64,000 nucleotides of DNA. Origin: Candidatus Sericytochromatia bacterium (GTDB taxonomy: Bacteria > Cyanobacteriota > Sericytochromatia > UBA7694). The stretch's first letter is position 1, and each line of letters opens with the position of its first letter. The translations under genes were made by a program, and so were the position numbers. Below the pieces are notes generated by a model. It searched no databases and had not been told where the DNA came from. It saw only the letters and a program-made list of their open reading frames with translations. The stretch spans positions 7,823 to 71,822 of the forward strand of contig JADMKE010000047.1 in NCBI GenBank assembly GCA_018780035.1. The letters run 5' to 3'. Shown in pieces: positions 22,227-55,436 of this stretch.

Positions 22227-23997
22227 TGCCCAAGAGCTTTTTGCGAATCAGGCTGATCGGCGGCAGGCCTTCGCTTAAAAAGGCATCGTGAAATTCGCGC
22301 AGCGAGAAATCTTGGCCTTTGAGGGCCTGGTAATCCACCCGCAGTTTCTGCAGCATGAGTTTGCCCAGGGTGTAGTAGAGATAAGTGGGATCTGAGGTCC
22401 CTCGCCGGGTTTCGAGCAGGGCGTTGGTGCGCGATTGGTAGCCCTCTTTGACAAAGAATTCCACACCTTCTGCAAAGCTCATCTGGCCGGTGTGCATTTG
22501 AATGCCAACAATATAACGGGCATTGCGCAGCAGGGCGTCTTGCAATTGGCCCAAACGCAGCTTCAGATCGCCTTCTCCGTAGCCCTCATCGAGCATCATC
22601 TGCTCACAATAATGGGCCCAGCCTTCAAAATTGCTGGCCGCAGAGAGAATCTGCCGCACCTTGCTGGGGGCCTTTTGGGCCCAGAGAAACTGGATATAAT
22701 GGCCGGGATACGCTTCGTGAATCGCGGTTGAAATAATCACGCCATAGTTAAAACCCGCCATATACTCCGCAATATCTGCCGCTGGCCAAGTCGGATCGGG
22801 CAGGGTCACATTAAAATACGCTTCGGTGGCTTTGGCTTCAAACGGGCCGGGTGTGTCCATCGAGGCAAAGGTCATGGCCCGCATAAACGAAGGGGTCTCA
22901 GCAATCAATGGCGGCACCTGGGAGGGAATGGTGAGGATCTGCTTTTGAACAATAAAGTCCTGAATGCCGCCCAGCACGTCTCTGAAGCTCTGCAAGAGCT
23001 TTTCGGGTGGGGGGTGATCCTTGCCCAAGGCTGCCAAGACCTGTTCCGGGCTGCTTTGGGGATCCAGTTGGGCCGCAACGGCTTTAAATTGGGCCTGGTT
23101 TTTGCGCAAATCTGCATAACCAATTTCCAACAGGCGGGGCAGAGGCAAATCCACCTTTTCATCGTAAAGCAGTTTTTGGCGGTAATTCTCAGCCCCAATC
23201 CGAAAATCTCCCTTTGAACGCGGCAGCAAATCGCTTTTGAGCCAATCCAAATAGGCCTTGAGTTCGGCGATCACCTTTTGGTTGCTTGCCTGAAATTGGG
23301 CCCATAAAACGGGATCTTTAACATCTTTAAACGCTGCGGGCACATCGTTTTCAAAGAAGGGTATCATGTCCGGGATTTGTTCAATCGCGACCTCGGTGAA
23401 GATTTTGGGCGGGTTCTTGAGATTGGCACGGGCGGCGGCAAAAATGGCGGGAATTTGTTGTTCACGGGCGATGACCGCTTTTAAGCGTTGCTTTGGCGGC
23501 GCAAAACTGCGCGAGATCAAGGTGTAGATGGTTTCGCTGGCCCCACTTGCATAGTTGTCGGGGTTCTTTTCCCAGCCCCGGATCTGTTCGGCTTCGAGCA
23601 ATTGCGCGTTTAAATGGGAGATCAGCAATTCGCGATCTTCGGCTTCCAGGGGGCTGAGTTGTGCCTGCGAAAAGGCGCCCAACTCTTTCAGATAGCGTTT
23701 ATTATCGCGGATATCTGCTTCCACTGCGGCCTTGCTGAAATCTTCCAAAACATGGTCAAAGTCGTGTTTTCCGAGATAAGTGGCATAGGTGGGGTTGTTT
23801 TGCAGATAGTCGACAAAATAGCGTTCGACCCAGGCTTGCCATTTGGGGTTGGTAAGCGGGCTGGCCACTTTGCTGGCCATGCGGACAGGGTCTGCGATGG
23901 GCAAAGTCTGGGCCAAACCCGCAGGAGCAGAGCTGGCGCCGAAACACAGCAGAAGGGCCAAGGCCGAAAGACGTGAAGGTAAACGCTTTAAGAGCAT
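22207..23997 (-). CDS. DUF885 family protein (secreted paralogue)
   Basis: 596 aa with a signal peptide (LLLCFGASSAPAGLA) and the HEAYPGHYIQ motif. Collinear with the 6892..8634 product. Confidence 0.8.
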   Translation of the reverse strand: MLLKRLPSRLSALALLLCFGASSAPAGLAQTLPIADPVRMASKVASPLTNPKWQAWVERYFVDYLQNNPTYATYLGKHDFDHVLEDFSKAAVEADIRDNKRYLKELGAFSQAQLSPLEAEDRELLISHLNAQLLEAEQIRGWEKNPDNYASGASETIYTLISRSFAPPKQRLKAVIAREQQIPAIFAAARANLKNPPKIFTEVAIEQIPDMIPFFENDVPAAFKDVKDPVLWAQFQASNQKVIAELKAYLDWLKSDLLPRSKGDFRIGAENYRQKLLYDEKVDLPLPRLLEIGYADLRKNQAQFKAVAAQLDPQSSPEQVLAALGKDHPPPEKLLQSFRDVLGGIQDFIVQKQILTIPSQVPPLIAETPSFMRAMTFASMDTPGPFEAKATEAYFNVTLPDPTWPAADIAEYMAGFNYGVIISTAIHEAYPGHYIQFLWAQKAPSKVRQILSAASNFEGWAHYCEQMMLDEGYGEGDLKLRLGQLQDALLRNARYIVGIQMHTGQMSFAEGVEFFVKEGYQSRTNALLETRRGTSDPTYLYYTLGKLMLQKLRVDYQALKGQDFSLREFHDAFLSEGLPPISLIRKKLLGNDSPVL

Positions 23998-28557: not shown

Positions 28558-29094
28558 ATGCTTCACAAATTTTTCTTTTCTTGTGTCTTTATGTTTGGGG
28601 TTAATTTGCCTTCATTTGCAGTCAATAGCCATGGTTTACAGAAGGTGCATATTCAAGCCTTAAAAGTGCTAGGAAAACCAATTGCGGTCCCCTATTACAC
28701 TCCAGACACTTGTAAAGTTGATTTTGTGAGTATCATTGATAGCGTTAAAATTCAATTAGGTGGTTTGGGCTATAAAATTCAATACGTATGTAAAAACGCT
28801 TTGATTTATCAGATTGAAGCAACTCAAGGTGGTATCGGAGATATTCCTTTTGAAGGATTGGATTTTCAGGTCAACAACAAACAATTTGGCAAAATATTTG
28901 TAACATATTTCCAACCAAGCGAAAATGGTCCTGAAATGAAACAGCCATTTTACTCTACTGGTTGGTTTGACATGGGAAAAGGCTCTCTTTTTTTCACATT
29001 TCATACAGGAAATGGAAGACTTGATAGCACAAGCCCTCCACTGAGCAAGGCTGAGGTTTTAAAAATTGTAGCCTCGATGGGTCTCCTAAAATAG
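28558..29094 (+). CDS. orphan secreted protein in an AT-rich islet
   Basis: Hydrophobic N-terminus FFFSCVFMFGVNLPSFA. 178 aa, with no family recognised. Confidence 0.5.
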   Translation: MLHKFFFSCVFMFGVNLPSFAVNSHGLQKVHIQALKVLGKPIAVPYYTPDTCKVDFVSIIDSVKIQLGGLGYKIQYVCKNALIYQIEATQGGIGDIPFEGLDFQVNNKQFGKIFVTYFQPSENGPEMKQPFYSTGWFDMGKGSLFFTFHTGNGRLDSTSPPLSKAEVLKIVASMGLLK

Positions 29095-32648: not shown

Positions 32649-33836
32649 ATGAAGCTTTTATTGGTAGAAGATGATGCAAGTATGGGGTTGCTCTTTGAGC
32701 GACTCCTGACCCGTTTGGGTTATGAAGTTTGTATCGAAAAAAGCGCTGAAGCAGCCTGGGATCGTTTTCAGTACGAGCCCTTTGATCTGGTCATTACCGA
32801 TTGGGTGCTTGCAGGTATCAGCGGTTTAGAACTTTGCAAACGTTTGCGCTCCCTCCCTTATGGCGAATACATTTATATCTGTGTTGTCACTGCCCGTAAT
32901 TCCAAAGAAGATTTGCTCGAAGTGCTTGAAGCCGGTGCCAACGACTATCTGGCCAAACCCCTTGAAATCCCGCTTTTGGAAGTGCGTATTCGGATTGCAG
33001 AACAACAGGTCTTTCATCTCCAACAGCGCCGCGAAGCCAGGGCTGAGTTGTCTCGCCATCAGCTGGAATTGGAAGGGCGTGTTTTGTCGCGCACAGAAGA
33101 GCTTTCGGAAATGATTCAGGCACTGCAAGATGAGATCAACCAACGGCGCAATGCCGAAACCCGCCTGGCCCAAACCCATCTCCAATTAAGGGCCTTGGCC
33201 AGCCATTTGCTCTCGATTCAAGAAGAGCAACAAAAACGGATATCTCGGGAAATCCATGATGAGCTGGGACAGGCCATGACGGCACTCAAACTGGACTTGG
33301 CCTGGCTGCTACAGCAATTAAACGACCAACCGGTTTTACAGGCAAAAATCCAAAAAATGATCCCTTTGGTCAGCGATACCATTTCCACCATTCAGCGCAT
33401 TTGTGCGGAACTCAGACCCGGCCTGTTGGACGATCTTGGGCTTGAAGCCGCTCTGGAGTGGCTGGTACAAGAATTTGGCGAACGTACGGGTTTGGTCTGT
33501 CTATTGCATTTTGAACCCGAAGAATTAGCACTGCCGATGGACCTTTCCACGACACTGTTTCGCATTTGTCAGGAATCTTTGACCAATATTATGCGCCATG
33601 CCCAAGCCAAACAAGTGAAAATCAGCCTGACCCGCGTCGAGCAAACGGTTTCGCTGCGTGTCCAAGACGATGGCAAAGGCATTTCTGCAGATCAAATCAA
33701 CCACCCCCATTCACTGGGTCTGATGGGGATTCGCGAGCGGGTTTTGCCCTGGAATGGCGATGTCACAATCTCAGGCCAAAGCGGTCAGGGCACCACTATT
33801 TTTGTTCAAGTCAGCCTGGAGGAAGAAACCCCATGA
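32649..33836 (+). CDS. hybrid sensor: N-terminal receiver - coiled coil - HisKA_3 - HATPase_c
   Basis: REC segment LLLVEDD...DLVITDWVLAGISG...K, H-box ISREIHDELGQ, and an ATPase domain with GLMGIRERV and GQGTTIF. Confidence 0.85.
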   Translation: MKLLLVEDDASMGLLFERLLTRLGYEVCIEKSAEAAWDRFQYEPFDLVITDWVLAGISGLELCKRLRSLPYGEYIYICVVTARNSKEDLLEVLEAGANDYLAKPLEIPLLEVRIRIAEQQVFHLQQRREARAELSRHQLELEGRVLSRTEELSEMIQALQDEINQRRNAETRLAQTHLQLRALASHLLSIQEEQQKRISREIHDELGQAMTALKLDLAWLLQQLNDQPVLQAKIQKMIPLVSDTISTIQRICAELRPGLLDDLGLEAALEWLVQEFGERTGLVCLLHFEPEELALPMDLSTTLFRICQESLTNIMRHAQAKQVKISLTRVEQTVSLRVQDDGKGISADQINHPHSLGLMGIRERVLPWNGDVTISGQSGQGTTIFVQVSLEEETP

Positions 33837-34459
33837 TTTCTATTTTAATTGCCGATGATCACGCCATTGTGCGTGAAGGTTTGAAGCAAATTCTGTCGGG
33901 ATTGCCCGATTTTAAGGTCAGTGCAGAGGCCTCCAGCGGTTATGAGACGATCCAGAAATTGGAAGAAATGCCCATCGATTTGGTGATTTTGGATATCAAC
34001 CTCGGTGATCAAAATGGACTCGAAGTGCTCAAGCAGATTCGCCAAAAATGGGCCAGCTTGCCCGTTTTAATTCTGACCATGCATTCTGAAAAACAATATG
34101 CCACCCGCATGCTCAAAGCCGGGGCTTCGGGCTTTTTAAACAAAGGTTCTGCTTCAGAAGAATTGGTCAATGCCCTGCGCAAAATTGCCCGTGGTGGCAA
34201 ATACATCACCGAGAGTCTGGCAGAACAATTGGTGATGGAAATGGGGCAAAGCACAGCGGTGCCGCACGAGCGGCTCTCAGACCGGGAATTTGAAATTTTT
34301 AGGCAAATTGCGATTGGCAAAAAGAACAAAGAAATTGCTGAAGAACTGTATTTAAGCGAAAAAACGGTCAGCACCTATCAAAGCCGGATTCTCGAAAAAA
34401 TGAACCTGGCCAATCGCGCAGCCATCATTCACTATGCTTTGGAGAACAGTTTGATCTAG
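33833..34459 (+). CDS. NarL/FixJ-family response regulator (REC + LuxR-type HTH)
   Basis: MISILIADDHAIVREG..., DLVILDINLGDQNG, and C-terminal LSDREFEIFRQIAIGKKNKEIAEELYLSEKTVSTYQSRILEKM. The ATG overlaps the kinase stop (ATGA at 33833..33836). Confidence 0.9.
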   Translation: MISILIADDHAIVREGLKQILSGLPDFKVSAEASSGYETIQKLEEMPIDLVILDINLGDQNGLEVLKQIRQKWASLPVLILTMHSEKQYATRMLKAGASGFLNKGSASEELVNALRKIARGGKYITESLAEQLVMEMGQSTAVPHERLSDREFEIFRQIAIGKKNKEIAEELYLSEKTVSTYQSRILEKMNLANRAAIIHYALENSLI

Positions 34460-34578: not shown

Positions 34579-35196
34579 ATGAAAAAGATTCTGGCTCTGC
34601 TGCTGGCTTTAAGTGCCTGCCAAACCCTTCCCCTTAGTACCCCAACGGGAAACCCCTCAGTGGCGGACCGGCCACGCGAAACCACCCCGACGACTGAACT
34701 GGCAGCTTCCAGCCCCTCAGTTGAAACCGCTTTGGCCCCCCGTCCAGCACAAGGCCCCACTGTGGCCAAGAATGTGCCTCAATCTTCCCCAGCTGCCCGC
34801 GCAGTGAATCTTCCCACCACTGTCTCTGCTTCTGTTCCCAATACAGCCAATGTTGCACCTGTTGCAGCCCCCAAAACCCGCATCCCGATTGCCAGCTTAA
34901 ACGTGCCCAAGGGCTTTGATTATGCCACGACCCAAGATGTTCAGGTCGATATCCAGGTCAAGAGTCCCAACGGCAACCCCTACCAAAAAGTGATGGTTGC
35001 CATCTATGCCGTAGACAGCCAGGGTTTTAATCCCTTGGTACGCGGTGTGACCGATGCTGAGGGCCGTTATCAAGACCTGATGCGGATCCCTGGTTACCAT
35101 CAGGACTTGCAAATCCAGGTCTCTGCTCTGGGCATTGAAAATTACCAACGGGTCAAGATTGTCAACGATCAACTGATTGCTCAATTCGGAAATTAG
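34579..35196 (+). CDS. lipoprotein with a Pro/Thr/Ala-rich linker and a small beta-rich C-terminal domain
   Basis: Lipobox LLALSAC. The C-terminal segment KVMVAIYAVDSQGFNPLVRGVTDAEGRY is carboxypeptidase-regulatory-like. Confidence 0.6.
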   Translation: MKKILALLLALSACQTLPLSTPTGNPSVADRPRETTPTTELAASSPSVETALAPRPAQGPTVAKNVPQSSPAARAVNLPTTVSASVPNTANVAPVAAPKTRIPIASLNVPKGFDYATTQDVQVDIQVKSPNGNPYQKVMVAIYAVDSQGFNPLVRGVTDAEGRYQDLMRIPGYHQDLQIQVSALGIENYQRVKIVNDQLIAQFGN

Positions 35197-35208
35197 AGGG
35201 AAATAACC

Positions 35209-36891
35209 ATGAAAAAGACATTTAACGCTTTATCCATGCAACTTTCAAAAACCTACAGCCTGCTCAGCCTCAGTGGCTTGGCGCTCTTCAGCTTGCTGAC
35301 ACCCGCTCTTGCTGCTGATGTGTATAACTGGGAATTTTTGGCGGGCAATTACAAGGACAATTATGACGCCCAAGGCATTCCCAAGAATCTGGACCCAGCT
35401 CAGCGCAAAGAATACCCCAATGAATTCTGGACCCGACTTTCAGCTTCTCTGCCTGAACAATTGGACATTCGCAAAACCAGCCCCAGCAGCATAACTTCTG
35501 ACAAGTCTGCCAATTTACATATGTTGGAAGAAGGAGATGTCTTTGTGACCTTCTTGCACGAAGGAGCCGGTTACCGCAATAGTTTTGGCTATTTTGTCTA
35601 CGACAAAAACCAGCCCCCGACCAAGTTTGCAGAGATCAAAAGCACAATTGTGTTTCCCAATACCTCTTTTAATGGTTCTGGTGGCAATGCCCGTGGCCTG
35701 AAAAGTGGCGATACCCTTTATCTGGGAAGGTTTAAAGCGGGTCAGAGTTTGGGATTTGTGATTGCCTCTGATGGGTTTGACAGCACCGACGGGGTGCAGA
35801 AAAATCTCGACAGCAGCCGTATTTTTACCACCTTGAGCCAATTGAATCCTGAAAGTGATCCCAGTTTAAAAGCCCATACTGTTTTGCTCTATGATGAAGC
35901 GACCCAGCAGAGTGTTTTGGGCTTGGAAGACATGTTGCGCAGCAATGGCAGCTGTGATCACGATTTTAACGATGTGATTTTTACCCTCAGTGCCAACCCC
36001 CCCGAAGCGGTGGATATCTCGTCTATCAAACCTTTGCCCGAAGCCATTGATAGCGATAAAGATGGGGTATTAGACGCCAATGACAGTTTTCCCAAAGATC
36101 CATCGCGGGCTTTTTACCAGTATTATCCCGAGCAAGGGCAACGCAGCTCCTTGGTCTTTGAAGACAATTGGCCCGCCCAAGGGGATTATGATATGAACGA
36201 TCTGGTGTTGAACTACGCCTTTGAAAACACCACCAATAGCCAAGGCCAGGTCAAAGATATCTCTGTCAATTTTGAATTGGCTGCCCGAGGTGCCGATTTA
36301 CACAATGCCTTTGCCCTCGAAATTCCAGGGCTGGCTCCTGACAATCTCGACAAAGCTGAATTGATCATCGGCAATCAGAGCCAGGTGATACTCCCCGAAT
36401 CGGGACAGCGCAATGCCGTCTTTAACCTGATCGCAGATGCCAGTCGTTTTCTGCCCCAAGGCCAAGGGAAATGCCGCTTTTACAATACCCAAATTGGCTG
36501 TGAAACCCATCCCGGCCAGCAATTTCAGCTCAAATTGTCGCTCAAAACCCCCTTGGCCAAAACGCTGATTGGGCTCCCACCTTACAATCCCTTTATCTAT
36601 CGCACAGATCAACGGGGTTATGAAATTCATCTGCCCAATTACACACCCACCGATCGGGCCAGCAAATCGCTGTTTAAAACCCGTGATGATAATTCAGGCC
36701 CCAATAATTATTATAAAACAAAAAATAATTTGCCCTGGGCCTTAAATATTCCCAGTCAATGGGCTTATCCCTCTGAACAATCTGAAATCTCCAGTGCCTA
36801 TTTGGATTTTAAAACCTGGGCTGAATCCAGCGGTCAGAACAAACCCGACTGGTACCGCCAAAATACCCAAACCGATTTGATTTGGAAATAG
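35209..36891 (+). CDS. secreted DUF4114 / LruC-domain protein
   Basis: Signal peptide. DHDFNDVIFTL is DUF4114-like, and DYDMNDLVLNY plus the C-terminal region follow an LruC-like pattern. It has Asp-rich Ca-binding-like DSDKDGVLDANDSFPKD. Confidence 0.6.
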   Translation: MKKTFNALSMQLSKTYSLLSLSGLALFSLLTPALAADVYNWEFLAGNYKDNYDAQGIPKNLDPAQRKEYPNEFWTRLSASLPEQLDIRKTSPSSITSDKSANLHMLEEGDVFVTFLHEGAGYRNSFGYFVYDKNQPPTKFAEIKSTIVFPNTSFNGSGGNARGLKSGDTLYLGRFKAGQSLGFVIASDGFDSTDGVQKNLDSSRIFTTLSQLNPESDPSLKAHTVLLYDEATQQSVLGLEDMLRSNGSCDHDFNDVIFTLSANPPEAVDISSIKPLPEAIDSDKDGVLDANDSFPKDPSRAFYQYYPEQGQRSSLVFEDNWPAQGDYDMNDLVLNYAFENTTNSQGQVKDISVNFELAARGADLHNAFALEIPGLAPDNLDKAELIIGNQSQVILPESGQRNAVFNLIADASRFLPQGQGKCRFYNTQIGCETHPGQQFQLKLSLKTPLAKTLIGLPPYNPFIYRTDQRGYEIHLPNYTPTDRASKSLFKTRDDNSGPNNYYKTKNNLPWALNIPSQWAYPSEQSEISSAYLDFKTWAESSGQNKPDWYRQNTQTDLIWK

Positions 36892-36896
36892 GTCCG

Positions 36897-38411
36897 ATGG
36901 AAACCATACTGATTATCGAAGACGATCCAGATATTCAGGTCTTGTTGAAGACCTATCTGCGCAAAGCCAATTACCAGGTGAGCTTTGCTCCGACACTTGC
37001 GCTGGGGGTTGAACGCATGACTCAGCTCTCACCGGCGCTGGTTTTGTTGGATATCCATTTGCCCGATGGCAATGGACTCGATCTATTGCCCCAGCTTGCT
37101 GCAGATTCCACTCCCGTGGTCATGTTGACCGCTGAGAGCAGTAGCCTGGAGCAGGCTTTCGCCCTGGGAGCGGTTGACTATCTGCAAAAACCGGTCGTGA
37201 AAGGTGAGCTTTTGGCGCGGGTCAACCGGATTATTGCCAACCGCCGTTTGCATCAAGAGCAAGACAAATTATTGTTGGAATTGCAGGCCGATTTGGCCTT
37301 GGCCACCCAGGTGCAACAATTGAGTCTGCCTCACATCACTTCCCCTGATGCGCCCCTGGCGGTGGAGTGGATCTACCGCCCCTTAACCACCATCAGTGGC
37401 GATCTCTTGGCGGTATCTGCCCCCACTGAGCACAGTCGCTACTTTTGTCTGGGAGATGTCTCTGGCCATGGCATGGCTGCGGCTTTGGTGATGATGGCCC
37501 TGCGCAGCGCGTTTGATAGCTTGGTCAAAATGGCCCCCCGGGCCCCTTGGGAAATGATGCGCGATCTTTCCGAACGGATGAAAAACCTGCTCGATCGCCA
37601 TTATATAACCCTGGTGATTGGGCACCTGGATCTCGAATCGGGTTATCTCCAGATCTGCAATGCCGGACATCCTCCGGTTTTGCTGCGCAGAGCAGGACAA
37701 ATCCTGACCTTACAGGGCAAAACGGGGATGCCGATGGGTATTCAAGCGCCTGAACAGCTGGGCCCTGAGTATGATTTTCACACCCCATTAATGCCTGGAG
37801 ATGAACTCTTGCTTTGCAGTGACGGTCTGTTTGAAATGGGCCAATACAAAACAAAACAAGGTTTTGAGGCTTTGCAAACCTGTTTTGCCAACTGCCAAAG
37901 CCCCAGCTTAAGCGACACGGCTCAACAACTGGTTTCTGGCTTGCAGGCCGAGCAGCTGCCCAGTGACGATCTCAGTCTCTTAATCCTCAAATTACAAACC
38001 CTGACATTTAAAGTCAAAACCGCCGTAAACGCAGAGGCCATGGAAATGGCCGGTGAAGATCTCAAACTGTGGTTGCTGCAAATCAAATGCAACCAACGGA
38101 AAATCGAACAAATGAGCCTGATCTGGCTTGAATATTCAAACAATGTCTTGATTCACTCTCAAGCCAGTCAATTGGAGTTGGAAGCCCGTTTTGACCCCAC
38201 GGGCTTGACTCTGGTGTTTCGCGACAATGGCCAGGCCTGGGCCGTTGATTCAGACTTGGGTTTGCCAGATCCCCTGGCTGAATCTGGCAGGGGTCTTTGG
38301 CTGATTCAGCAGCTCAGCCAAGGGTTTCAACTCACGCGCAAAAATAATTTAAACCACCTTGAACTGACCTGTACACAACTCACTCAAATGGAGACCTTTA
38401 CCGATGTTTGA
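36897..38411 (+). CDS. REC - PP2C (SpoIIE-type) phosphatase - RsbW/SpoIIAB-like kinase fusion
   Basis: REC segment ILIIEDD...LVLLDIHLPDGNG. PP2C segment ISGDLLAV...CLGDVSGHGMAAALVM...CSDGLFE. C-terminal HATPase-like segment EYSNNVLIHS...FRDNG...GRGLWLIQQL. Confidence 0.8.
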   Translation: METILIIEDDPDIQVLLKTYLRKANYQVSFAPTLALGVERMTQLSPALVLLDIHLPDGNGLDLLPQLAADSTPVVMLTAESSSLEQAFALGAVDYLQKPVVKGELLARVNRIIANRRLHQEQDKLLLELQADLALATQVQQLSLPHITSPDAPLAVEWIYRPLTTISGDLLAVSAPTEHSRYFCLGDVSGHGMAAALVMMALRSAFDSLVKMAPRAPWEMMRDLSERMKNLLDRHYITLVIGHLDLESGYLQICNAGHPPVLLRRAGQILTLQGKTGMPMGIQAPEQLGPEYDFHTPLMPGDELLLCSDGLFEMGQYKTKQGFEALQTCFANCQSPSLSDTAQQLVSGLQAEQLPSDDLSLLILKLQTLTFKVKTAVNAEAMEMAGEDLKLWLLQIKCNQRKIEQMSLIWLEYSNNVLIHSQASQLELEARFDPTGLTLVFRDNGQAWAVDSDLGLPDPLAESGRGLWLIQQLSQGFQLTRKNNLNHLELTCTQLTQMETFTDV

Positions 38412-39657
38412 AAATTTAGTCATTCCACAAATTGTCCGTCGTTTTGACTTTGAAGAGTGGGGAGGCACCGAGTCTGTGGTCTGGGAGAGTTCTAAGAAAC
38501 TCAAAAGCTGGGGCGTTCAGCCCGAGATTCTCAGCACCCAGGCCTTGAACCCAACTGCCACAGAAGAGCGCGAAGGACTTCAGATCCAGCGTTTTGATTA
38601 CCACTATCCCTATTGGGGACTGACCGAGCAAAACCGACGCCAACTCGACAAAAAAGGTGGAAACCCCTTTGTTCCTGCCATGGAGAAGTATCTATTGGAC
38701 CTGCCTGGCTTGGATCTGCTGCACAGCCACGGAATGCAACGGATTGCAGGTTTGGTTCGGCGGGTCGCCCAAAAACGCAAGATTCCCTATGTGGTCTCGT
38801 TTCATGGGGGCAATCTGGAATTGCCAAGCTCAGAAATTGAACAAATGTGCTCCCCTGTCAAAGGCAGCTTTCATTTTGGCCGCATCTTTGATCCCTGGTA
38901 TGGCACAGACAAGGCTTTGGCAGAGGCCGATGCCTTGATTTGTGTGGGTTATAGCGAGTATCTCAAGACCCAAGCGGCTTACCCGAATCAACGGGTGGTG
39001 TACTTGCCCAATGGCGTAGAACCTGCGCGTTTTGAACAGGCACAGGGCAACCGTTTTAAACAGCAGTATGGTATTCCCCCCGAGTTGCGCCTATTGCTCT
39101 GTGTGGGCAGGATTGATCCTCAAAAGAACCAAGCCGTTTTACTCGAATTATTGCCTGAATTACCAGAAAATACAGGCCTGGTGTTAATTGGGCCTCCCAC
39201 CGATCCAGGGTATCAGGCAGAACTTGAAGAAACCATCCGTGCCAGGGGCCTTTCTCAGCGGGTGTGGCTGATTCCGGGTTTGAATGCCGATGATCCCCTT
39301 TTGGCTGATGCCTATGACGCAACCGAGATCTTTGTCCTGCCTTCGCGCCATGAACCCTTTGGCATTGTCGTCCTCGAAGCCTGGATGCGGCGCAAACCCG
39401 TTTTGGTCGCTGATCTGGGGGGCTTACAGCATTTGGTCAACGATGGGGTTACAGGGCTGCGGTTTGGGAATACCCGTGAGCTGGTTCAATCGGCCAAGGT
39501 ATTATTGCAAGAGCCCGCGTTTGCCCACTTATTGGGTGAAGCTGGCTATCACGAAGCCCTTTTAAATTATAGCTGGGAGACCGTTGCCCATCGGCTTTAT
39601 AGCTTGTACCTCGAATTGGTGCAAGAAAATTCCCACAGCAAAAGAAGGATCCCCTGA
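38404..39657 (+). CDS. GT4 glycosyltransferase
   Basis: C-terminal EPFGIVVLEAWMRRKPVLVADLGGLQHLVNDGVTG (E-x7-E region). It overlaps the upstream gene by 8 nt. Confidence 0.85.
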   Translation: MFENLVIPQIVRRFDFEEWGGTESVVWESSKKLKSWGVQPEILSTQALNPTATEEREGLQIQRFDYHYPYWGLTEQNRRQLDKKGGNPFVPAMEKYLLDLPGLDLLHSHGMQRIAGLVRRVAQKRKIPYVVSFHGGNLELPSSEIEQMCSPVKGSFHFGRIFDPWYGTDKALAEADALICVGYSEYLKTQAAYPNQRVVYLPNGVEPARFEQAQGNRFKQQYGIPPELRLLLCVGRIDPQKNQAVLLELLPELPENTGLVLIGPPTDPGYQAELEETIRARGLSQRVWLIPGLNADDPLLADAYDATEIFVLPSRHEPFGIVVLEAWMRRKPVLVADLGGLQHLVNDGVTGLRFGNTRELVQSAKVLLQEPAFAHLLGEAGYHEALLNYSWETVAHRLYSLYLELVQENSHSKRRIP

Positions 39658-39709: not shown

Positions 39710-40426
39710 ATGTTTATTCAAACCCAGGCTCAGGTTCAGCTGATTAAGAATTATCAAAAACGGCTAAAATGGCAACGCCGATCTCGGCTGTGGTTGCCCC
39801 TGCAAAATCGTTTTATTTTGCGTCTCGCTGCGGGACTTAAACGCAGTTTCGACATCTTGGGTTCTGCGGCGGCACTCCTGGCGCTTTCGCCCCTTTTTGC
39901 AGCCACTGCGCTGGCGATCAAGTGGGAAGATCGGGGCCCGGTCTTCTTTGCCCAAGATCGGGTGGGGCAATACGGCGAGACCTTTCGCTTTTATAAGTTT
40001 CGCTCGATGGTGCTGAATGCCGAAGCGCTGAAAGACAGCTTGGCCCATCTCAATGAGTCAGGTGATGGGGTGATTTTTAAAGCCCGTCAAGACCCCAGAA
40101 TTACATCGGTGGGTCGTTTTATTCGCCGCTTTAGCATTGATGAATTGCCCCAACTCTGGAATGTCTTAAAAGGGGATATGAGTCTGGTCGGACCCCGCCC
40201 CCCGGTTCCCCGCGAAGTGGCAGATTATACCCCCGAAGACCGCAAACGTTTGCATGTCAGACCCGGTCTGACCTGTATTTGGCAGGTCAGTGGACGCAGT
40301 GAGATTCCCTTTCGCATGCAGGTGCAAATGGACCAGGAATATATACTCAAACGCAGTCTCAAGTTGGATCTGTCCCTTTTATTCAAAACGGTGAAAGCGG
40401 TGCTCAGTGGCCGCGGCGCATATTAA
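39710..40426 (+). CDS. undecaprenyl-phosphate sugar-1-phosphate transferase (bacterial sugar transferase family, short form)
   Basis: KRSFDILGSAAALLALSPLF, GPVFFAQDRVGQYGETFRFYKFRSM and DELPQLWNVLKGDMSLVGPRP. AGGAGG lies upstream. Confidence 0.9.
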   Translation: MFIQTQAQVQLIKNYQKRLKWQRRSRLWLPLQNRFILRLAAGLKRSFDILGSAAALLALSPLFAATALAIKWEDRGPVFFAQDRVGQYGETFRFYKFRSMVLNAEALKDSLAHLNESGDGVIFKARQDPRITSVGRFIRRFSIDELPQLWNVLKGDMSLVGPRPPVPREVADYTPEDRKRLHVRPGLTCIWQVSGRSEIPFRMQVQMDQEYILKRSLKLDLSLLFKTVKAVLSGRGAY

Positions 40427-40437: not shown

Positions 40438-41652
40438 ATGAAAATTCTGTATTTAACCCCTTTTTTGCCCTATCCCCTCAATCGCGGGACCCATCAACGG
40501 GTTTATCACCTGCTCAAAAGCCTCGCATCGGCCCACCAGGTAACGCTTTTTTCGCTTGATCCAGACAATCAAGCTGCAGCCCATCAGGGTGTGTTTGAAG
40601 CGCTCTGTGAGCGGGTCATTCGCAGGCCGGTTACACTCAACCCCTGGCGAAATTTGTCCCAACGGCTGTTTTCACCCCAGCCCGAAACCATGTTCCATTG
40701 GGATTTGCCGGCTATTCGTCAAGAGTTGGGTGAGATACTGAATTCAGAAGACTTTGACCTGATTTTTGCTGAAGATATTTGTATGACTCAGTACATCTAC
40801 GACCTCATGCCTGCCGGGGCAAAACAGATCCCTGTCATTACCGATCGCAATCGTGTGGATTTGGAGTTTATGCAAGAGAGTTGGCCCTATTTAAAAGGGC
40901 TGAGATCCCGTGCCAATTTTGCAGAAAACTACCTCAAACTCGAACGACTTGAACGCCGCCTGGCGAAACGATTTCCCAACCAAGTCGTGTGTTCACCCGA
41001 AGATGCTGATTTTGTCAAACAGCAATTGGATATCAACCCTTGGATCATCGGCAATGGCGTCGATCACCATTATTTCAAGCCCCAAAGCTGGTCCCGTGAA
41101 GGGGATGTGCCCGTGCTCTGTTTTACAGGGGCCATGGACTACGCCCCCAATGCCGAAGGCATTACCTGGTTTATGCAAGAAGTCCACCCGCTTTTGCTCA
41201 AAAAAATCGGGAAGTTTAAATTGCGGATCGTGGGACTCAACCCCGGACCTGAGATTCGGGCTTTTGAAGCTGTTGAGGGGGTTGAAGTGACGGGCGGTGT
41301 TCCGGATATTCGCCCCGCTTATGCTGCCTGTGATGTTTATATTGCCCCGATTCGCATCGGCGGTGGCACCCGGCTCAAAATCATCGAAGCCATGGCAATG
41401 GGCAAACCAGTGGTATCCACCCCCACAGGGGCGCAAGGCCTGGGTTTGACAGAAGGCCTGCAAGTGCGCTACGCCGAAAAATCCGTGGCTTTTGCCGCCC
41501 AGATTGGCGATCTCTTGGCCCATCCGGGAGTACGTGAAAGAATGGCCCAAGCAGGCATGAAGCACATCCTCAAACACTTTACCTGGGAGAGTTTGGGACA
41601 AAAATTAGTGCTAAGAGTAGAACAAGCAATGACTTTGGCCAAGGTGGCATAA
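40438..41652 (+). CDS. GT4 glycosyltransferase
   Basis: N-terminal MKILYLTPFLPYPLNRGTHQRVYHLL. The C-terminal GT1-type domain includes RLKIIEAMAMGKPVVSTPTGAQG. Confidence 0.85.
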   Translation: MKILYLTPFLPYPLNRGTHQRVYHLLKSLASAHQVTLFSLDPDNQAAAHQGVFEALCERVIRRPVTLNPWRNLSQRLFSPQPETMFHWDLPAIRQELGEILNSEDFDLIFAEDICMTQYIYDLMPAGAKQIPVITDRNRVDLEFMQESWPYLKGLRSRANFAENYLKLERLERRLAKRFPNQVVCSPEDADFVKQQLDINPWIIGNGVDHHYFKPQSWSREGDVPVLCFTGAMDYAPNAEGITWFMQEVHPLLLKKIGKFKLRIVGLNPGPEIRAFEAVEGVEVTGGVPDIRPAYAACDVYIAPIRIGGGTRLKIIEAMAMGKPVVSTPTGAQGLGLTEGLQVRYAEKSVAFAAQIGDLLAHPGVRERMAQAGMKHILKHFTWESLGQKLVLRVEQAMTLAKVA

Positions 41653-41787: not shown

Positions 41788-42398
41788 TTGACAAATGGGC
41801 GCAATATGTTTAGTTTAAAGAATCAAAAGCAGTTTTGTCTTCAACGGTTTGTCTATACGCGGCACATTTTGCAAGCCTTGGTTGATTTTCATGAAAGTGG
41901 AAAACTGCACCTGGCTTTAACACCCGCCCATATTTTAATCGATGGGGATTCGGTTCAAATTATTGCTGCCCTTGATTCTGAAAAATTACTCTATGATGCG
42001 CAGCGCTACGCAGCCCCTGAGTTACTCGTTCAAGTGGGAATGAGCGAACAGACAGATTTGTATGCCCTGGGGAGGATTCTGTTTGAGGCTTGGTCAGGGG
42101 TTTTGCCTGATGAGAAGGAGAACCCGCTGCCCAGTTTGACGCAATTTTTACCTGAATTGCCCCCTGGTTTGGACCGGTTTTTCCAAACTTTAATGGCCCC
42201 CCAGCTTCAAGACAGATATCCAAATGTAGAAAGCGATCTTTATGCTTTTTAGGCGTTTGAGGCTTATTTTTATCCTTTAGAGAGACGTTCTTTGTTATTG
42301 GGCGCAAACAGGAATTAAAGCAACTGAATAATTGGCTTGATGCCTCCAACCGTGGCATTTATTTTATTCAGGGCCAGCCTGGTGTCGGCAAATCTGCT
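41788..42398 (+). pseudogene. decayed 5' portion of a kinase-AAA-GAF-histidine-kinase gene: a degenerate protein-kinase C-lobe, an in-frame TAG, and a frameshift before the P-loop
   Basis: ORF 41788..42252 aligns to Ser/Thr kinase subdomains VIa-XI, with HRD replaced by LALTPAHIL and DFG replaced by AALDS. It has no N-lobe. The TAG is at 42250. The P-loop GQPGVGKSAL is encoded at 42372..42401 in the frame of the downstream ORF, upstream of any canonical start. Confidence 0.5.
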
Positions 42399-45300
42399 TT
42401 GCTCCAAGAAGTTTTATCTCAAAGAACTTATTTGAGTGGTAAATTTCAGCAGGCCATGAAATATACCCCCTCATATGCTGTTTTTATTGAGTCAATGCAG
42501 TCATTTTTGCGTTTTTTACTCAGTCTTTCTCTGTCTGAACGTTTGGTTTGGAAAGAAATTTTCCAAATTGAAATGGGCCTTTCCGCTCAAGTCCTTTTTG
42601 AAACCCTGCCTGAACTGGCTCTCATTTTAAATGAGACCAGCCAGACCCAGTTCAGTGGCAATTTGATCTTGGAAAATCCCTTTAACAGGGCTTTTGCCCA
42701 ATTATGGCAAGTGGTCAGTTCTCACCAACAGCTGATCGTCTGGTTAGATGATGTTCAATGGGCCGATGACAGTTCTTTGCATTTTTTCCGACAACTCTTC
42801 CCCTTAAATATCCTGTGGTTGATCAGCGGCAGAGAGATACAGCTCTTTCGGCAACAGAGTGAAAGTTCAGGGGATTTGAACGCTGAATTACTTGTGCTCA
42901 GTTCTTTCGAACCCCAATCCACCCATCTCTATTTGCAAGAAGCTTTGGGGGCCAGTTTTTCAGAAACAGAGTCTCTGTTGCCCGTTTTACAGGATTTAAC
43001 CCTAGGCAATCCGCTTTATCTTAAAGTGAGTTTGGAAGATTTTAAACGCCGAAAATTATTGACCTTTCAACCTGAACTTGGGGTTTGGAGCTTGAATTGG
43101 TCTGGTGAAAGGACCCAAAACAGTTTCTCAGAACAGATTTTACAAGACATGATTGGGCGCCAAGTGGCCGCTTTTTCTGAGCTTGAAAGGGCATTATTGG
43201 GGATCGCAGCTTGTTTGGGAGCCCGTTTTGCATATCTGGCACTCAAAACCTGTTTTTTGCAAATGCTGACAAATAGCTCTGTCACAGATTTGAAACAGGC
43301 GTTGTCTACCTGTGTGCGTGCAGGTTTTTTGCATCTCGATCAACCTGGCTTTTACCGTTTTGCCCATGATCGCCTGCACGAATGGATTCATTTGAGCTTT
43401 TCAGCCGAAGAAAGCACCCAATTTCGTTTAAAAACAGGCCGCGTGCTTTTGAATTTAAAAGGTCCACACTCATTGACGGGCTTGGCCGAAACCTTAAACC
43501 CTGTATATCAATCCCTTGATCCAGAAGAATTGACTTTGTTAATCGATGCCAATTTGGAATTGAGTGATCAGGCCTTAAAAAAAGGGGCCCAGGCAGAAGC
43601 GTTGGCGTTTTTAAGTGCTGTCCAATTGATGGCCTCAGAACAGCCTTTCAGTCCTGAACAAGAAATTAAAACTCTGGCCTTGATGGCTTTTTTGGATTAT
43701 CTCAAAGCAGATTTAAGCAATTCAGAACGCAAGCTCAAAAGTCTATTAAACAAATTCCCCGATGCCAATTTAACCGATGTCTATGTGCTGCTGGTGATCC
43801 TCTACACCCAGCAGAATCGCTATCAAGAAGCGGTTGAATTTACGGTGACGATCTTAAACCAAGCCGGGTTAGCGATTTCCCAGGAACCGGCCCAAATCGA
43901 AGCCCTGTTTTCAGGCTGTATTCAAACACTCAGCCGGTCGGTGCCCTCAGATCTATTGGATTTGAGTCTGCGCCCATCGAGCCCGGCTTTTGCAGATATC
44001 TTGCGTTTATTTGCTACATCGACCGCTGCTTTTTACAATTATCAACCTGAATTATTTGGGCTCTATGTTTTGTATTTCCTCGACCAAATTTTGCACCATC
44101 AGGGCGCGCCACAGTCCGGGATTATTTATGCTGCCAGTATTATTCTGGTAATGGCCCAAACAGACTTGGTATCTGTGGCCTGTTTGTTAGCCGATGGAGG
44201 CCTTTTAACGGCCCAGAGCTGGGGTCATTTGGATGAGTTGGCGGTTTTACATTGCGTGATTGGCGATTTTTTGGCCCCTTGGCACCAGGCCTATCGGCAG
44301 GCCTGTTCACATTTTGAAAGTTCCTGGCGGGCAGGATTACAGTCGGGGAATTTGCAATTTGCGGGTTATTCTCGCGTGTTTAAAGGGGCAAATCTGTTTT
44401 TATCAGGGTTTTCCCTTGAAGACTTCCAAACCAAAGAACTTCCTGCCATGTTGGCTTTTAATGCAACCATCCAAAATTTTTCTCCATTGGATGGCTTAAC
44501 TGGATATGCCTTACTTTTACATGCCCTGCGGCAAGAAGCTGAATGTTTTGACCTGCCGAATCAAACGGAGGCCGATTATATTGCGCTGATTCGGGGTCGG
44601 GGAAGTCAAGCGGATTTGTCCAGGTATTTTTCGTTTAAAGCATTTGTGCTCTTGCTTTATGGTCAGATTGAAACTGCGGCAGAAAACTATCGTCAAGCTG
44701 ACAATCTGCGCTATTTACAGGGTTCAGTGGTCAATGTCTTACATCTGTTTACGGGCTTAATTCTGGCTTTGCGCCGGGGTGAAAGTTTAGACACAGACGC
44801 CCATGCGGCTTCATTGCAAAAACTCAATCAATTGGCAGAGCGCTGCCCCGAAAACTTTGGCCCACTCATGGCTTTGGTGATTGCAGAAGATCCCGCTCAG
44901 GCCAATCAACCACGCATTGAAGCCTATGAAAGGGCTGTGACCCTTGCCAGGCAAGAAAAACTCAGCCATATCGAGGCCTTTGCCCTGGAATCTGAGTCCC
45001 GTTTTTGGCAACTTCAGGCTTTGCCCCGTTTGGCCGAACGGGCACTTTTTGAATCTGCTTTGGCGTATCAAAGCTGGGGAGCGACTGAAAAAGTCAATCA
45101 ATTATTGTTGCAATTTCCGCAACGATTAAAATTGCAGTACGAACAACATGTGCAACTTCCACATGCCGATTTGGATTTGGATCTTTTGATGCAAATTTCT
45201 GCTCTCTTTGCCCAGACCACCAAACAAGAAGAACTCTTGGCTGCGATTATGACGATCTTACAGACCCAAACAAAAGCCGAAAAAATGGCTTTGTTTATTG

Positions 45301-46439
45301 CCCCCGAAACAGCCACAGAAGTCACGGAGTGGACCTGTTTGGCCCATTTTGACCAAGGACAATTGCATTTGCAAGAGCGACCCCTCGATGCCGTTTGGCC
45401 CTTGGCTTTGATTCGCTATGTGGTTCAGACCTTGCGGATTGTGCGTTTGCCTCGGCATCTGGAGGAGTTGAATCAGATTCCTGAGGCCCGGAAACTCCAG
45501 GGTTCTCACTTTTTTCTGCCTTTGATTTTGCAAAACCGGCTGACGGGACTGATCTATCTTTGTTCAGAAAGCAATCCAGAGGCCTTTAATCTGCGCTCAG
45601 AACTTCTGCTCAAAGCCCTGGCTGGACATATTGCCAGCTCTTTGACCAATGCCCGAATGTATCACCAATTGGAAGCGACGATATTGGAGCGCACCCAGGA
45701 TTTACAGAAGGCCAATCACGGACTCACTCTTTTGCTGGAAGAGCGGCAACATGTGATTGCCATGGCGGCTCACGATCTTAAACACCCATTGGGCACCTTG
45801 ACCTTGGGGGTTTCTTTGCTCGAACAGATGCATGAACAATTAAGTCCTCAAGACCGGCAAGCGGCTTTTCTGAACTTAAAAAAGACCCTGTCTGACATGA
45901 ATGGCAATACCGAACGCTTGCTGCTGGCTGAAAGCTTGGATTTTGGCGGTCTTGAAGTGCATGTGCAACCCATCTCCCCCAAAGCTGATATTTTGCCCTG
46001 GTTCAGCCCTTATCAATTCCGGGCACAGGAAAAACAAATTGAATTCCAATTGTTTGGTTTTGAAACCCCTCAATGCATCTATACAGATCCGATTTTGTTT
46101 CGGCACATAGTTGAAAATCTCTGTTCAAATGCGCTCAATTTTTCACCCTTTAAGCGCAAGGTCAGGCTGTTCTTTGAGTGTTCGGCTGAGACCTTTGCCT
46201 TTGCTGTCGAAGACCAAGGGCCCGGTATTCCCGTGGATGAGCAGCCCAAATTATTTCAAAAATTTTCCAGATTAACGCCTCGGCCCACGGCTGGGGAAAG
46301 TTCTAGTGGATTGGGGCTGTTTATTGTCAAACAATTGGTGGAGATATTCCAGGGAAAGATTGTTGTTGATTCGGAGATTGGGCGGGGAACCCGGATCCAG
46401 GTACAGCTTCCCAATGCTCACAAGAACCTCACAATTTGA
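42399..46439 (+). CDS. large sensor histidine kinase (AAA/STAND-like ATPase region - helical repeats - GAF - HisKA - HATPase_c)
   Basis: Walker-B-like LIVWLDDVQWADDSSL, then a long helical region. The GAF-like segment is around LLMQISALFAQT...LPLILQNRLTGLIYL. H-box MAAHDLKHPLGTL; ATPase GLGLFIVKQLVE...GRGTRIQV. The frame is open from 42261. The start is uncertain. Confidence 0.75.
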   Translation: MLQEVLSQRTYLSGKFQQAMKYTPSYAVFIESMQSFLRFLLSLSLSERLVWKEIFQIEMGLSAQVLFETLPELALILNETSQTQFSGNLILENPFNRAFAQLWQVVSSHQQLIVWLDDVQWADDSSLHFFRQLFPLNILWLISGREIQLFRQQSESSGDLNAELLVLSSFEPQSTHLYLQEALGASFSETESLLPVLQDLTLGNPLYLKVSLEDFKRRKLLTFQPELGVWSLNWSGERTQNSFSEQILQDMIGRQVAAFSELERALLGIAACLGARFAYLALKTCFLQMLTNSSVTDLKQALSTCVRAGFLHLDQPGFYRFAHDRLHEWIHLSFSAEESTQFRLKTGRVLLNLKGPHSLTGLAETLNPVYQSLDPEELTLLIDANLELSDQALKKGAQAEALAFLSAVQLMASEQPFSPEQEIKTLALMAFLDYLKADLSNSERKLKSLLNKFPDANLTDVYVLLVILYTQQNRYQEAVEFTVTILNQAGLAISQEPAQIEALFSGCIQTLSRSVPSDLLDLSLRPSSPAFADILRLFATSTAAFYNYQPELFGLYVLYFLDQILHHQGAPQSGIIYAASIILVMAQTDLVSVACLLADGGLLTAQSWGHLDELAVLHCVIGDFLAPWHQAYRQACSHFESSWRAGLQSGNLQFAGYSRVFKGANLFLSGFSLEDFQTKELPAMLAFNATIQNFSPLDGLTGYALLLHALRQEAECFDLPNQTEADYIALIRGRGSQADLSRYFSFKAFVLLLYGQIETAAENYRQADNLRYLQGSVVNVLHLFTGLILALRRGESLDTDAHAASLQKLNQLAERCPENFGPLMALVIAEDPAQANQPRIEAYERAVTLARQEKLSHIEAFALESESRFWQLQALPRLAERALFESALAYQSWGATEKVNQLLLQFPQRLKLQYEQHVQLPHADLDLDLLMQISALFAQTTKQEELLAAIMTILQTQTKAEKMALFIAPETATEVTEWTCLAHFDQGQLHLQERPLDAVWPLALIRYVVQTLRIVRLPRHLEELNQIPEARKLQGSHFFLPLILQNRLTGLIYLCSESNPEAFNLRSELLLKALAGHIASSLTNARMYHQLEATILERTQDLQKANHGLTLLLEERQHVIAMAAHDLKHPLGTLTLGVSLLEQMHEQLSPQDRQAAFLNLKKTLSDMNGNTERLLLAESLDFGGLEVHVQPISPKADILPWFSPYQFRAQEKQIEFQLFGFETPQCIYTDPILFRHIVENLCSNALNFSPFKRKVRLFFECSAETFAFAVEDQGPGIPVDEQPKLFQKFSRLTPRPTAGESSSGLGLFIVKQLVEIFQGKIVVDSEIGRGTRIQVQLPNAHKNLTI

Positions 46440-54606: not shown

Positions 54607-55436
54607 ACCAAACTCCTTTCCGGCAGAACAGCTGCCTGGGCCATGGCGCTCATGGTCATCTGTGGGCGGGTTGCAATATACGCCAAAATGCGCTGAGCAG
54701 AAGCATATTGGTCGCAGAGATACATGGTGATTGGGTGTAAGATCAAATTGGAGATCACACCCAGGGCCTCATTGGCTTTGAGCTGTTCCAAGACCATGTC
54801 CGTCCAGACTTCAATTGAATACGATTCTGAGCCAAAATCGTCGGACCAATGATAGCGTTTGACCCATTGATCGACCCATTCCGGGGTGCGTTCAGCGTGG
54901 TAGAGATGTTCGTGATCGGGAATAATATTCAAGGGGAAATTGTAAATCCCCGTTGGATGCAATTCGGGCCCATTGCTGTCTTTGCGTACACCATCGGAGC
55001 AGATCAAAATGCCTGCCGCTTTGAGCAGGGCCTCGGTATAAGGCCCATGTTTGTACATGTGATTGCGCCAGCTGGTGATTTTGCGGCCAGTTTGGTCTTC
55101 GATGATCGCAATCGTCTTTTGCAGATCGCGTTTTTGGTACCAAGCTGGGCCATTGTAAGAGCCCAAGGCCTTGTTCCAGAAGCGGTGCCAAAGCTGGGGT
55201 TCAAAACAATCCCAATTGTGGCCCCCAATTTCAATCAGGGGGTTGTTCACAATCGGAACCAGGGCCGGGCCCTCTTCTAAGAAGGCCTTGCCGCTGATAA
55301 AATACGTTGCTTTGACCCCATATTCTGTCAATAATTGGGCAAAATCGAGTGCTGTTTGAACTTCAGACAAATCGCTGTGGGCCTGATTGCCTGTTCCGAG
55401 ACTGCTGTGATGAATATCTGCACTGAGCACAATCAT
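54603..55436 (-). CDS. polysaccharide deacetylase-like (CE4-like) protein
   Basis: MIVLSADIHHSS...KATYFISGKAF...EIGGHNWD follows a NodB-like pattern. The start is ATG 55436, which forms an ATGA overlap with the upstream stop. The family call is moderate. Confidence 0.55.
   Translation of the reverse strand: MIVLSADIHHSSLGTGNQAHSDLSEVQTALDFAQLLTEYGVKATYFISGKAFLEEGPALVPIVNNPLIEIGGHNWDCFEPQLWHRFWNKALGSYNGPAWYQKRDLQKTIAIIEDQTGRKITSWRNHMYKHGPYTEALLKAAGILICSDGVRKDSNGPELHPTGIYNFPLNIIPDHEHLYHAERTPEWVDQWVKRYHWSDDFGSESYSIEVWTDMVLEQLKANEALGVISNLILHPITMYLCDQYASAQRILAYIATRPQMTMSAMAQAAVLPERSLV

Follow-up and report, generated by a model that had tools for sequence, protein, structure and literature searches.

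A single protein that combines a receiver (REC), a SpoIIE-type PP2C phosphatase and an RsbW-type serine kinase domain is encoded within a large polysaccharide cluster of a Candidatus Sericytochromatia bacterium, a member of the non-photosynthetic sister group of the cyanobacteria. Its gene lies at 36897..38411 of a stretch of 64,000 nucleotides (nt) of contig JADMKE010000047.1 (assembly GCA_018780035.1), referred to here as the window, and the same cluster encodes a STAS protein, a small phosphoglycosyl transferase (PGT) of the Bac_transf family and an uncharacterised protein, here named X. The domain architecture of the regulator, the conservation of its catalytic residues and of the STAS phosphosite, and the linkage of these genes are observed in the window and in its relatives. 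By analogy with the SypE/SypA and HenR/All4160 systems, we favour, on balance, the reading that the regulator forms a partner switch that gates polysaccharide initiation post-translationally via the STAS protein.

A response regulator with three conserved domains

The reading frame of the regulator is open from 36882 or 36897 to 38411 on the forward strand, and the ATG at 36897 is the start in all orthologues, which gives a protein of 504 amino acids (aa). A first-pass annotation of this DNA, made from the sequence alone, had described the protein as a fusion of a receiver, a SpoIIE-type phosphatase and an anti-sigma-type serine kinase, and had named the three Pfam models by which this could be checked. 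All three score above their curated cutoffs: Response_reg (aa 4-109, 79.8 bits; cutoff 30.2), SpoIIE (aa 182-366, 135.2 bits; cutoff 25) and, for the C-terminal domain, HATPase_c_2 (aa 380-491, 36.4 bits, E 6e-9; cutoff 27.4). In an alignment of homologues that share 24-90% identity with the regulator, the receiver residues D9, T78 and the phospho-acceptor D52 are invariant and K98 is nearly so, as are invariant the metal-binding residues of the PP2C domain, i.e., D169, D187 (within GDVSGHG; D187-x-x-G-H), D309-G310 and D357-D358. The kinase domain contains the N box EYSNNVLIHS and the G2 box GRGLWLIQQL, and residues E412/N416 of the N box, D443 of the G1 box and G464-x-G466 of the G2 box are conserved in homologues down to 24% identity. 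Because the functional residues are kept over this range, all three domains look active.

Recognition of the C-terminal domain among solved structures required a profile of homologues, as a search of PDB with the single sequence returned a chance match only. The profile, built from 11 homologues, matched RsbW (6m36, E 1.7e-12), SpoIIAB (~1e-5) and the RsbW domain of Rv1364c (7.5e-5), and aligned the N, G1 and G2 boxes of the regulator with the ATP-binding motifs of RsbW. An AlphaFold (AF2) model of the whole regulator, computed from a 13-sequence alignment, reached a predicted local distance difference test score (pLDDT) of 87.4 and a predicted template modelling score (pTM) of 0.72. Foldseek matched it best to the REC-PP2C protein RssB of Pseudomonas aeruginosa (3eq2/3f7a), the nearest solved structure of that type, and to the RsbU-RsbW fusion of Rv1364c (3ke6, Foldseek E 5.7e-21). 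The PP2C domain itself matched the PP2C structures of RssB, SpoIIE and SiaA.

Linkage of the regulator to a STAS protein and a phosphoglycosyl transferase

The first-pass annotation had guessed, across 23 kb, that the substrate of the regulator is the product of the reading frame at 61316..61672. This frame does encode a single-domain STAS protein (Table 1), in which the motif D55-S56-x-G58-L59-G60 is invariant in the alignment of homologues. S56 is the predicted phosphosite and corresponds to S58 of SpoIIAA and to S56 of both SypA and HsbA. A local scan of the window with hidden Markov models (HMMs) identified this one STAS domain and one strong RsbW-type domain, that of the regulator (E 4e-52); the other RsbW-type match is weak (E 7e-5) and falls on the HATPase of the histidine kinase at 32649..33836. 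The pairing of the two proteins has since gained comparative support from five further Sericytochromatia assemblies and from two genomes of the Planctomycetes-Verrucomicrobia-Chlamydiae (PVC) group, along with the invariant D-S-x-G-L-G motif.

The regulators of the five further Sericytochromatia assemblies are 90, 52, 43, 42 and 40% identical to that of the window, and the cluster is syntenic in all of them wherever the assembled contigs let it be read. The regulator is followed by a GT4 glycosyltransferase and the PGT and, further on, by STAS (118 aa), X, a PCP-like gene (~670 aa) and Wza. In all Sericytochromatia clusters read, these last four genes make up a single conserved operon, and the STAS and X genes, which overlap by 4 nt in the window, do so in every locus read. 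In the window and in the five further assemblies alike, the regulator and a STAS protein with the conserved serine are encoded in one polysaccharide locus. The regulator gene also overlaps the following GT4 gene, by 8 nt in the window (the GT4 gene starts at 38404 and the regulator gene ends at 38411, as first annotated), by 8 nt in L001 and by 14 nt in L008.

The strongest evidence for the pairing of regulator and STAS comes from two loci of the PVC group, in which the regulator is 25% identical to that of the window. In a metagenome-assembled genome (MAG) of Kiritimatiellaeota (L013), five contiguous genes encode an Hpt protein, the REC-PP2C-RsbW regulator, Bac_transf, STAS and X, and a Verrucomicrobiota MAG (L012, also seen as L097) contains the contiguous run regulator, Bac_transf, STAS, X. 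In both, the regulator and STAS genes are one gene apart, the STAS and Bac_transf genes are adjacent, and neither a sigma factor gene nor other polysaccharide genes, PCP and Wza included, are present beside the run. This contiguity indicates that regulator, PGT, STAS and X constitute a module that survives across phyla, which supports the regulator-STAS pairing and suggests that the output lies in the PGT and X. These loci were found in a profile scan of genome contigs with the regulator alignment, anchored on the motif [YC][LI][GA]DVSGHG. Among the matches listed, most were two-domain RssB-like proteins from Pseudomonas, the only full-length ones were L011-L013, and there were no Sericytochromatia. 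A metagenome scan with a single X protein returned only L013 itself and contigs with the HMM scores of the L012 genome.

Translational coupling to GT2/GT4 genes also occurs in more distant regulators with this architecture, with overlaps of 4 nt in both L011 and L091. In L011 (7584..13572), from a Cloacimonetes MAG, the gene order is a STAS::MlaE fusion, an ABC ATPase, DHFR, the regulator and a GT2::GT4 fusion, and in L091 (8001..15877) it is the regulator, GT2, GT4, REC-Hpt, a binding protein and a hybrid kinase. In L092 (8001..13340), from a Nitrospirota MAG, the regulator is followed by STAS, MlaE, an ABC ATPase and MlaD. The neighbourhoods of L011 and L092 hint at phospho-control of Mla-type lipid transporters, and the three-domain regulator family seems to serve envelope-biogenesis outputs more generally. 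One homologue (P0088) has the domain order of SypE (kinase, REC, PP2C). The best plasmid match to the window STAS is found on plasmid pNFSY07 of Nostoc flagelliforme (L093; NZ_CP024792.1 266372..271382), where the annotated run comprises a glycosyltransferase, a PIG-L deacetylase, STAS, a SpoIIE phosphatase and an anti-sigma regulatory factor. This run represents a further partner switch linked to polysaccharide genes, with its parts unfused.

Sigma factors were sought by comparing the plausible open reading frames (ORFs) of at least 100 aa in the window with Pfam, and none of those scanned in the 64 kb passed a sigma-70 model, in agreement with the first-pass annotation. The NarL-type regulator at 33836..34459 was the only protein with Sigma70_r4 matches, all of them sub-threshold and on its GerE helix-turn-helix. 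Three ORFs of the size of an extracytoplasmic function (ECF) sigma factor were discarded as candidates, namely those encoding an ACT-domain protein (18771..19328) and a peptide deformylase (19331..19849), and that at 28558..29094, which has no Pfam match. Nor was a sigma gene present in the flanks read in the five further Sericytochromatia assemblies.

Protein X, a probable pseudo-enzyme

Protein X measures 433-474 aa across the Sericytochromatia loci (433 aa in the window). Its N-terminus has weak similarity to sugar-1-phosphate nucleotidyltransferases, the signature of which is G-x-G-T-R; this signature is absent from X, where IIFQDNQIS is found instead. The middle part contains a left-handed beta-helix (LbH) segment. 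The C-terminal part, which matches PGTs in BLASTP (E 7e-6), is collinear with small PGTs. It contains a helix-Pro-helix segment as well as the motif L-x-L-R-P-K-M-W-Q-V-x-x-G-Q-M-A-L-V-G-Q-P-P. Where PGTs have their catalytic Asp-Glu dyad (sIDELPQL), the window protein has LELRPKM and other members have LDR, and ~30 central PGT residues are missing. Because of this replacement and this gap, X is most likely a pseudo-enzyme, and as a whole it looks like a triple one in which a dead nucleotidyltransferase, an LbH domain and a dead phosphoglycosyl transferase are joined. At E<=1e-30 the family, which is large and has members typically of 440-490 aa, comprises 98 cluster representatives, and at E<=1e-10 this number rises to 890; no Pfam model spans the whole protein.

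Organization of the polysaccharide cluster

From ~31.2 kb to its end the window is one large Wzx/Wzy-type polysaccharide cluster, the main features of which are collected in Table 1. The cluster begins with ManC, a REC-HisKA_3 kinase, a NarL-type regulator, a small protein, an LruC-domain protein and the three-domain regulator, which is followed by GT4, the Bac_transf PGT, GT4 and a variable block of sensor genes. The middle part encodes Wzx, GT4, Wzy, an acetyltransferase, GT2, a deacetylase, an ORF without Pfam match (55433..56752) and GT4, and the final part a phosphodiesterase, a GT4::WecG fusion, STAS, X and the start of the PCP-like protein. A terminator-like hairpin precedes the STAS gene and thereby sets STAS, X and the PCP-like gene apart as a separate transcription unit.

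Table 1. Features of the window that bear on the proposed switch
Feature	Position	Strand	Basis
Three-domain response regulator (REC-PP2C-RsbW-type kinase), 504 aa	36897..38411	+	Pfam, AF2 model, Foldseek
Receiver domain of the regulator	36906..37223	+	Pfam, homologue alignment
SpoIIE/PP2C phosphatase domain of the regulator	37440..37994	+	Pfam, alignment, Foldseek
RsbW/SpoIIAB-type serine kinase domain of the regulator	38034..38369	+	Pfam, profile against PDB, alignments
GT4 glycosyltransferase; overlaps the regulator gene by 8 nt	38404..39657	+	ORF list, Pfam
Small PGT (Bac_transf), 238 aa, initiating enzyme; candidate target	39710..40426	+	Pfam, 225.5 bits
GT4 glycosyltransferase (TIGR03087-like)	40438..41652	+	Pfam
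REC-HisKA_3-HATPase kinase (32649..33836) and NarL-type regulator (33836..34459)	32649..34459	+	Pfam, synteny
Terminator-like hairpin and T run between the GT4/WecG gene and the STAS operon	61130..61157	+	Sequence
Single-domain STAS protein, 118 aa	61316..61672	+	Pfam STAS, 57.6 bits
Protein X, 433 aa: degenerate NTP_transferase, LbH, degenerate phosphoglycosyl transferase	61669..62970	+	Profile, BLASTP, alignment
PCP-like protein, N-terminus (~670 aa in full); runs past the window end	62996..64000	+	tblastn, 82% identity to L005

The histidine kinase at the start of the cluster looks soluble, has its own N-terminal receiver and is coupled to the NarL-type regulator. The kinase/NarL-type pair is found upstream in those Sericytochromatia clusters with a readable upstream flank: L003/L004 and L008 retain it, and part of it can be seen in L001. 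The kinase may be the phosphodonor of the three-domain regulator, and the pair may constitute a transcriptional branch that parallels SypF-SypG. Directly upstream of the regulator gene, with a gap of 5 nt, lie the genes of the small protein and the LruC-domain protein (34579..36891). The latter contains DUF4114 and DUF4842 (TIGR04456, 278 bits) and its small neighbour has no above-threshold Pfam match; the two genes are kept in L001 and L008 and absent from the Blackallbacteria locus L003.

In the variable block, a protein-kinase fragment that matches positions 102-200 only of Pfam Pkinase (41788..42252) is followed, in a different frame, by a gene for a 1346-aa AAA_16-GAF-HisKA-HATPase protein (42399..46439), and together they look like a decayed Ser/Thr-kinase::histidine-kinase fusion. 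At this position the relatives carry other inserts, i.e., TetR and Fer4 in L001, an Hpt-bearing hybrid kinase and FIST in L008, and a GDSL lipase in L003. The "GT4-conflict" Pfam matches in the cluster are weaker matches that overlap ordinary GT4 domains of a Wzx/Wzy cluster, and a defence-system reading of them was discarded. Two ORFs on the reverse strand at 63102..63890 have no family matches, overlap the PCP-like gene and are probably spurious. Scans of the window for Rfam families and tRNAs returned no matches. The left half of the window encodes, among others, two DUF885 paralogues (6892..8658 and 22207..23997; 540 and 359 bits) and a 1140-aa TPR-GT2 protein (14338..17760), all unrelated to the switch.

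Proposed mechanism and alternative explanations

In the proposed mechanism, D52 of the receiver would be phosphorylated by a two-component kinase or a phosphorelay. Candidate phosphodonors are the REC-HisKA_3 kinase of the cluster or an Hpt protein like that encoded beside the PVC homologue L013; among the scanned ORFs of the window no Hpt protein was found. The substrate of the regulator would be the cluster-encoded STAS protein, modified at Ser56. On the model of HsbR and SypE, the kinase would be favoured while the receiver is unphosphorylated, giving the phosphorylated STAS protein; once the receiver is phosphorylated, the phosphatase would be favoured and release free STAS. The dephosphorylated protein would be the active form, as for SypA and All4160, and would bind the Bac_transf PGT, the translationally coupled X, or both, and this engagement would permit the initiation of the lipid-linked repeat unit in the Wzx/Wzy-dependent pathway. 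The NarL-type regulator could serve a parallel, transcriptional branch, in the manner of SypG beside SypE. The enzyme activities, the polarity of the switch and the STAS target are modelled here on these named precedents.

Besides the conserved residues, phosphosite and gene linkage described above, four observations favour such post-translational gating. In Anabaena a STAS domain is fused to Bac_transf in the protein All4160, a Rosetta-stone arrangement that argues for STAS control of the PGT; SypE and SypA follow the same logic inside the syp locus, below transcription; distant regulators are coupled to glycosyltransferases (L011 and L091); and no sigma-70 gene was found among the scanned ORFs of the 64 kb. 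Other observations weigh against it. The STAS and regulator genes of the window are separated by 23 kb and belong to different transcription units, and the G1 box of the regulator reads DxGxxW instead of the usual DxGxG. HsbR and CrsR, which have the same architecture, sequester RpoS, which is encoded elsewhere (PMC6482189). The analysis had 64 kb of the genome in view, and further STAS, RsbW, PP2C or sigma genes may exist in this bacterium. As for X, the likeness of its C-terminus to PGTs rests on a 42-column hhalign match (87.7% probability, E 3.4e-6), together with a weak Pfam Bac_transf match of the L013 orthologue and the collinear alignment, and its AF2 model was too poor (mean pLDDT 51) and was left out of the fold search.

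It can be suggested, tentatively, that the real switch partner of the STAS protein is X, a membrane-associated dead PGT relative fused to a dead nucleotidyltransferase, and that STAS, X and the active PGT together act as a widespread, so far undescribed checkpoint where polysaccharide synthesis takes its first committed step. If true, this would name the class of target long sought for SypA of Vibrio, which in that organism would presumably be the syp-encoded sugar transferase SypR.

The main rival to gating through the STAS protein is sigma factor sequestration in the mode of HsbR and CrsR, which we consider rather unlikely. The C-terminal domain would then also be an anti-sigma factor that holds a distantly encoded sigma factor, for example a group-2 or RpoS-like one, and unphosphorylated STAS would free this factor for transcription of the cluster. 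The regulator has the domain order of HsbR and CrsR, which bind a distantly encoded RpoS (PMC6482189), the RsbW and SpoIIAB domains matched by the C-terminal profile are anti-sigma factors, and the view is limited to 64 kb of genome. However, no sigma gene was found among the scanned ORFs of the window, in the flanks read in the five further Sericytochromatia assemblies or in the compact PVC module; the cluster already holds a NarL-type regulator and a kinase for transcriptional control; and the STAS::Bac_transf fusion of the sister lineage points to direct control of the enzyme (PMC13555669). The first-pass annotation had left the output as either an unlinked sigma factor or a non-sigma target. 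The evidence now favours a non-sigma target inside the cluster, and the unlinked sigma factor is the less favoured of the two.

There is a small chance that the switch is real and that the STAS protein acts on chain-length control or export, i.e., on the PCP-like protein or Wza, instead of initiation. The presence of STAS, X, the PCP-like gene and Wza in one operon in every Sericytochromatia cluster read is consistent with this, but the compact PVC module keeps PGT, STAS and X without an adjacent PCP or Wza, and the fusion partner of the cyanobacterial STAS domain is a PGT (PMC13555669). An equally slight probability is given to the idea that regulator and STAS are not partners, the former acting on a distant STAS protein or on the co-translated GT4, and the latter being served by other enzymes. 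This would suit their distance and separate transcription units in the window, and also L091, in which the regulator is accompanied by glycosyltransferases and no STAS gene lies within 8 kb; against it, the window holds exactly one STAS and one strong RsbW-type domain, and the two genes share a cluster in every checkable Sericytochromatia assembly and are one gene apart in L012 and L013. Finally, it is very improbable that the C-terminal domain is a catalytically dead docking module and the regulator only a regulated phosphatase (as HenR or RssB) with a kinase in trans, as might be supposed from the modest HATPase_c_2 score (36.4 bits), the atypical G1 box and the empty single-sequence search of PDB, given that E412, N416, D443 and G464-x-G466 are kept to 24% identity in alignment with the ATP-binding motifs of RsbW and that neither the window nor the PVC module contains another RsbW-like gene.

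Comparison with known partner-switching systems

Partner-switching modules have long been viewed as regulators of sigma factors. The RsbU/RsbV/RsbW-sigmaB and SpoIIE/SpoIIAA/SpoIIAB-sigmaF systems have the same three modules and the same STAS phosphoserine chemistry as proposed for the window, but they consist of separate proteins and have a sigma gene in their operon, whereas no sigma gene is found among the scanned ORFs of the window. RssB (of the RssB/RssC system of Pseudomonas) is a REC-PP2C protein without a kinase domain, unlike the regulator of the window. Rv1364c of Mycobacterium tuberculosis combines a PAS sensor with a STAS domain of its own and is not known to have a receiver. It provides the solved precedent of a fused RsbU-RsbW pair (title of PDB entry 3ke6). 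HsbR, SypE, HenR, Alr3423 and All4160 are likened to the window proteins by their published description, and not by sequence.

The closest architectural likeness is to HsbR of P. aeruginosa and CrsR of Shewanella oneidensis, in which REC, PP2C and kinase/anti-sigma domains are fused (PMC5085249, PMC6482189). Hpt-dependent phosphorylation of its receiver turns HsbR from the kinase of the STAS protein HsbA into its phosphatase, with FlgM, the diguanylate cyclase HsbD and RpoS as outputs (PMC5085249, PMC6482189). HsbR/HsbA (PA3346/PA3347) and CrsR/CrsA share with the window the three domains, their order and a single-domain STAS protein with Ser56, and an Hpt gene adjoins the homologue in L013. 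However, hsbR, hsbA and hptB are adjacent and located in a flagellar region, whereas the window partners are spread through a polysaccharide cluster with STAS 23 kb away, and no sigma, anti-sigma or diguanylate cyclase gene is nearby.

SypE of Vibrio fischeri has its domains in the order kinase, REC, PP2C and controls the STAS protein SypA (S56) within the syp polysaccharide locus (PMC4517449, PMC10120452, PMC8256260). This control operates below transcription, unphosphorylated SypA is the active form, and the SypA target is still unknown (PMC4517449, PMC10120452, PMC8256260). As in the window, a response regulator with opposing serine kinase and PP2C domains and a STAS protein are encoded inside a polysaccharide locus, but the order of domains in the window is REC, PP2C, kinase (compare PMC10120452) and the window cluster adds protein X.

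In Anabaena PCC 7120, in the sister lineage, All4160 is a STAS::Bac_transf fusion that loses its activity when the RsbW-like kinase Alr3423 phosphorylates S74; a form that cannot be phosphorylated is active (PMC13555669). The evidence that All4160 is reactivated by the REC-SpoIIE phosphatase HenR, presumably through dephosphorylation, is genetic (PMC13555669). STAS::Bac_transf fusions are, according to the authors, common in cyanobacteria and rare elsewhere (PMC13555669). The parts of this system (see also XssP of Synechocystis), i.e., a REC-SpoIIE protein, an RsbW-like kinase, a STAS domain and a Bac_transf enzyme of an envelope polysaccharide, are those of the window. In Anabaena, unlinked genes encode the phosphatase and the kinase as separate proteins, and STAS and Bac_transf form one polypeptide; in the window, phosphatase, kinase and receiver are fused, STAS (118 aa) and Bac_transf (238 aa) are free, and the pseudo-PGT X is coupled to STAS.

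The three-domain fusion itself is not new, as HsbR and CrsR have it in the same order and SypE in another, and the novelty implied by the first-pass annotation was overstated, since both architecture and logic were known from HsbR/HsbA, CrsR/CrsA and SypE/SypA (PMC6482189, PMC5085249, PMC4517449). What appears to be new, and undescribed in the searchable literature, is the position of the fusion inside a polysaccharide cluster, its association with PGT, STAS and X in a module found across phyla, and a pseudo-PGT as partner. The action of a partner switch on a polysaccharide-initiating enzyme was shown only recently (in Anabaena, in 2026), and the target of SypA in Vibrio has been unknown for more than a decade. 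The locus described here presents the same parts in another fusion pattern, in the non-photosynthetic sister lineage of the cyanobacteria and in two genomes of the PVC group, and offers two specific candidate targets, the PGT and the uncharacterised pseudo-enzyme family X. It thus provides a directly testable model for the post-translational gating of exopolysaccharide synthesis across phyla.

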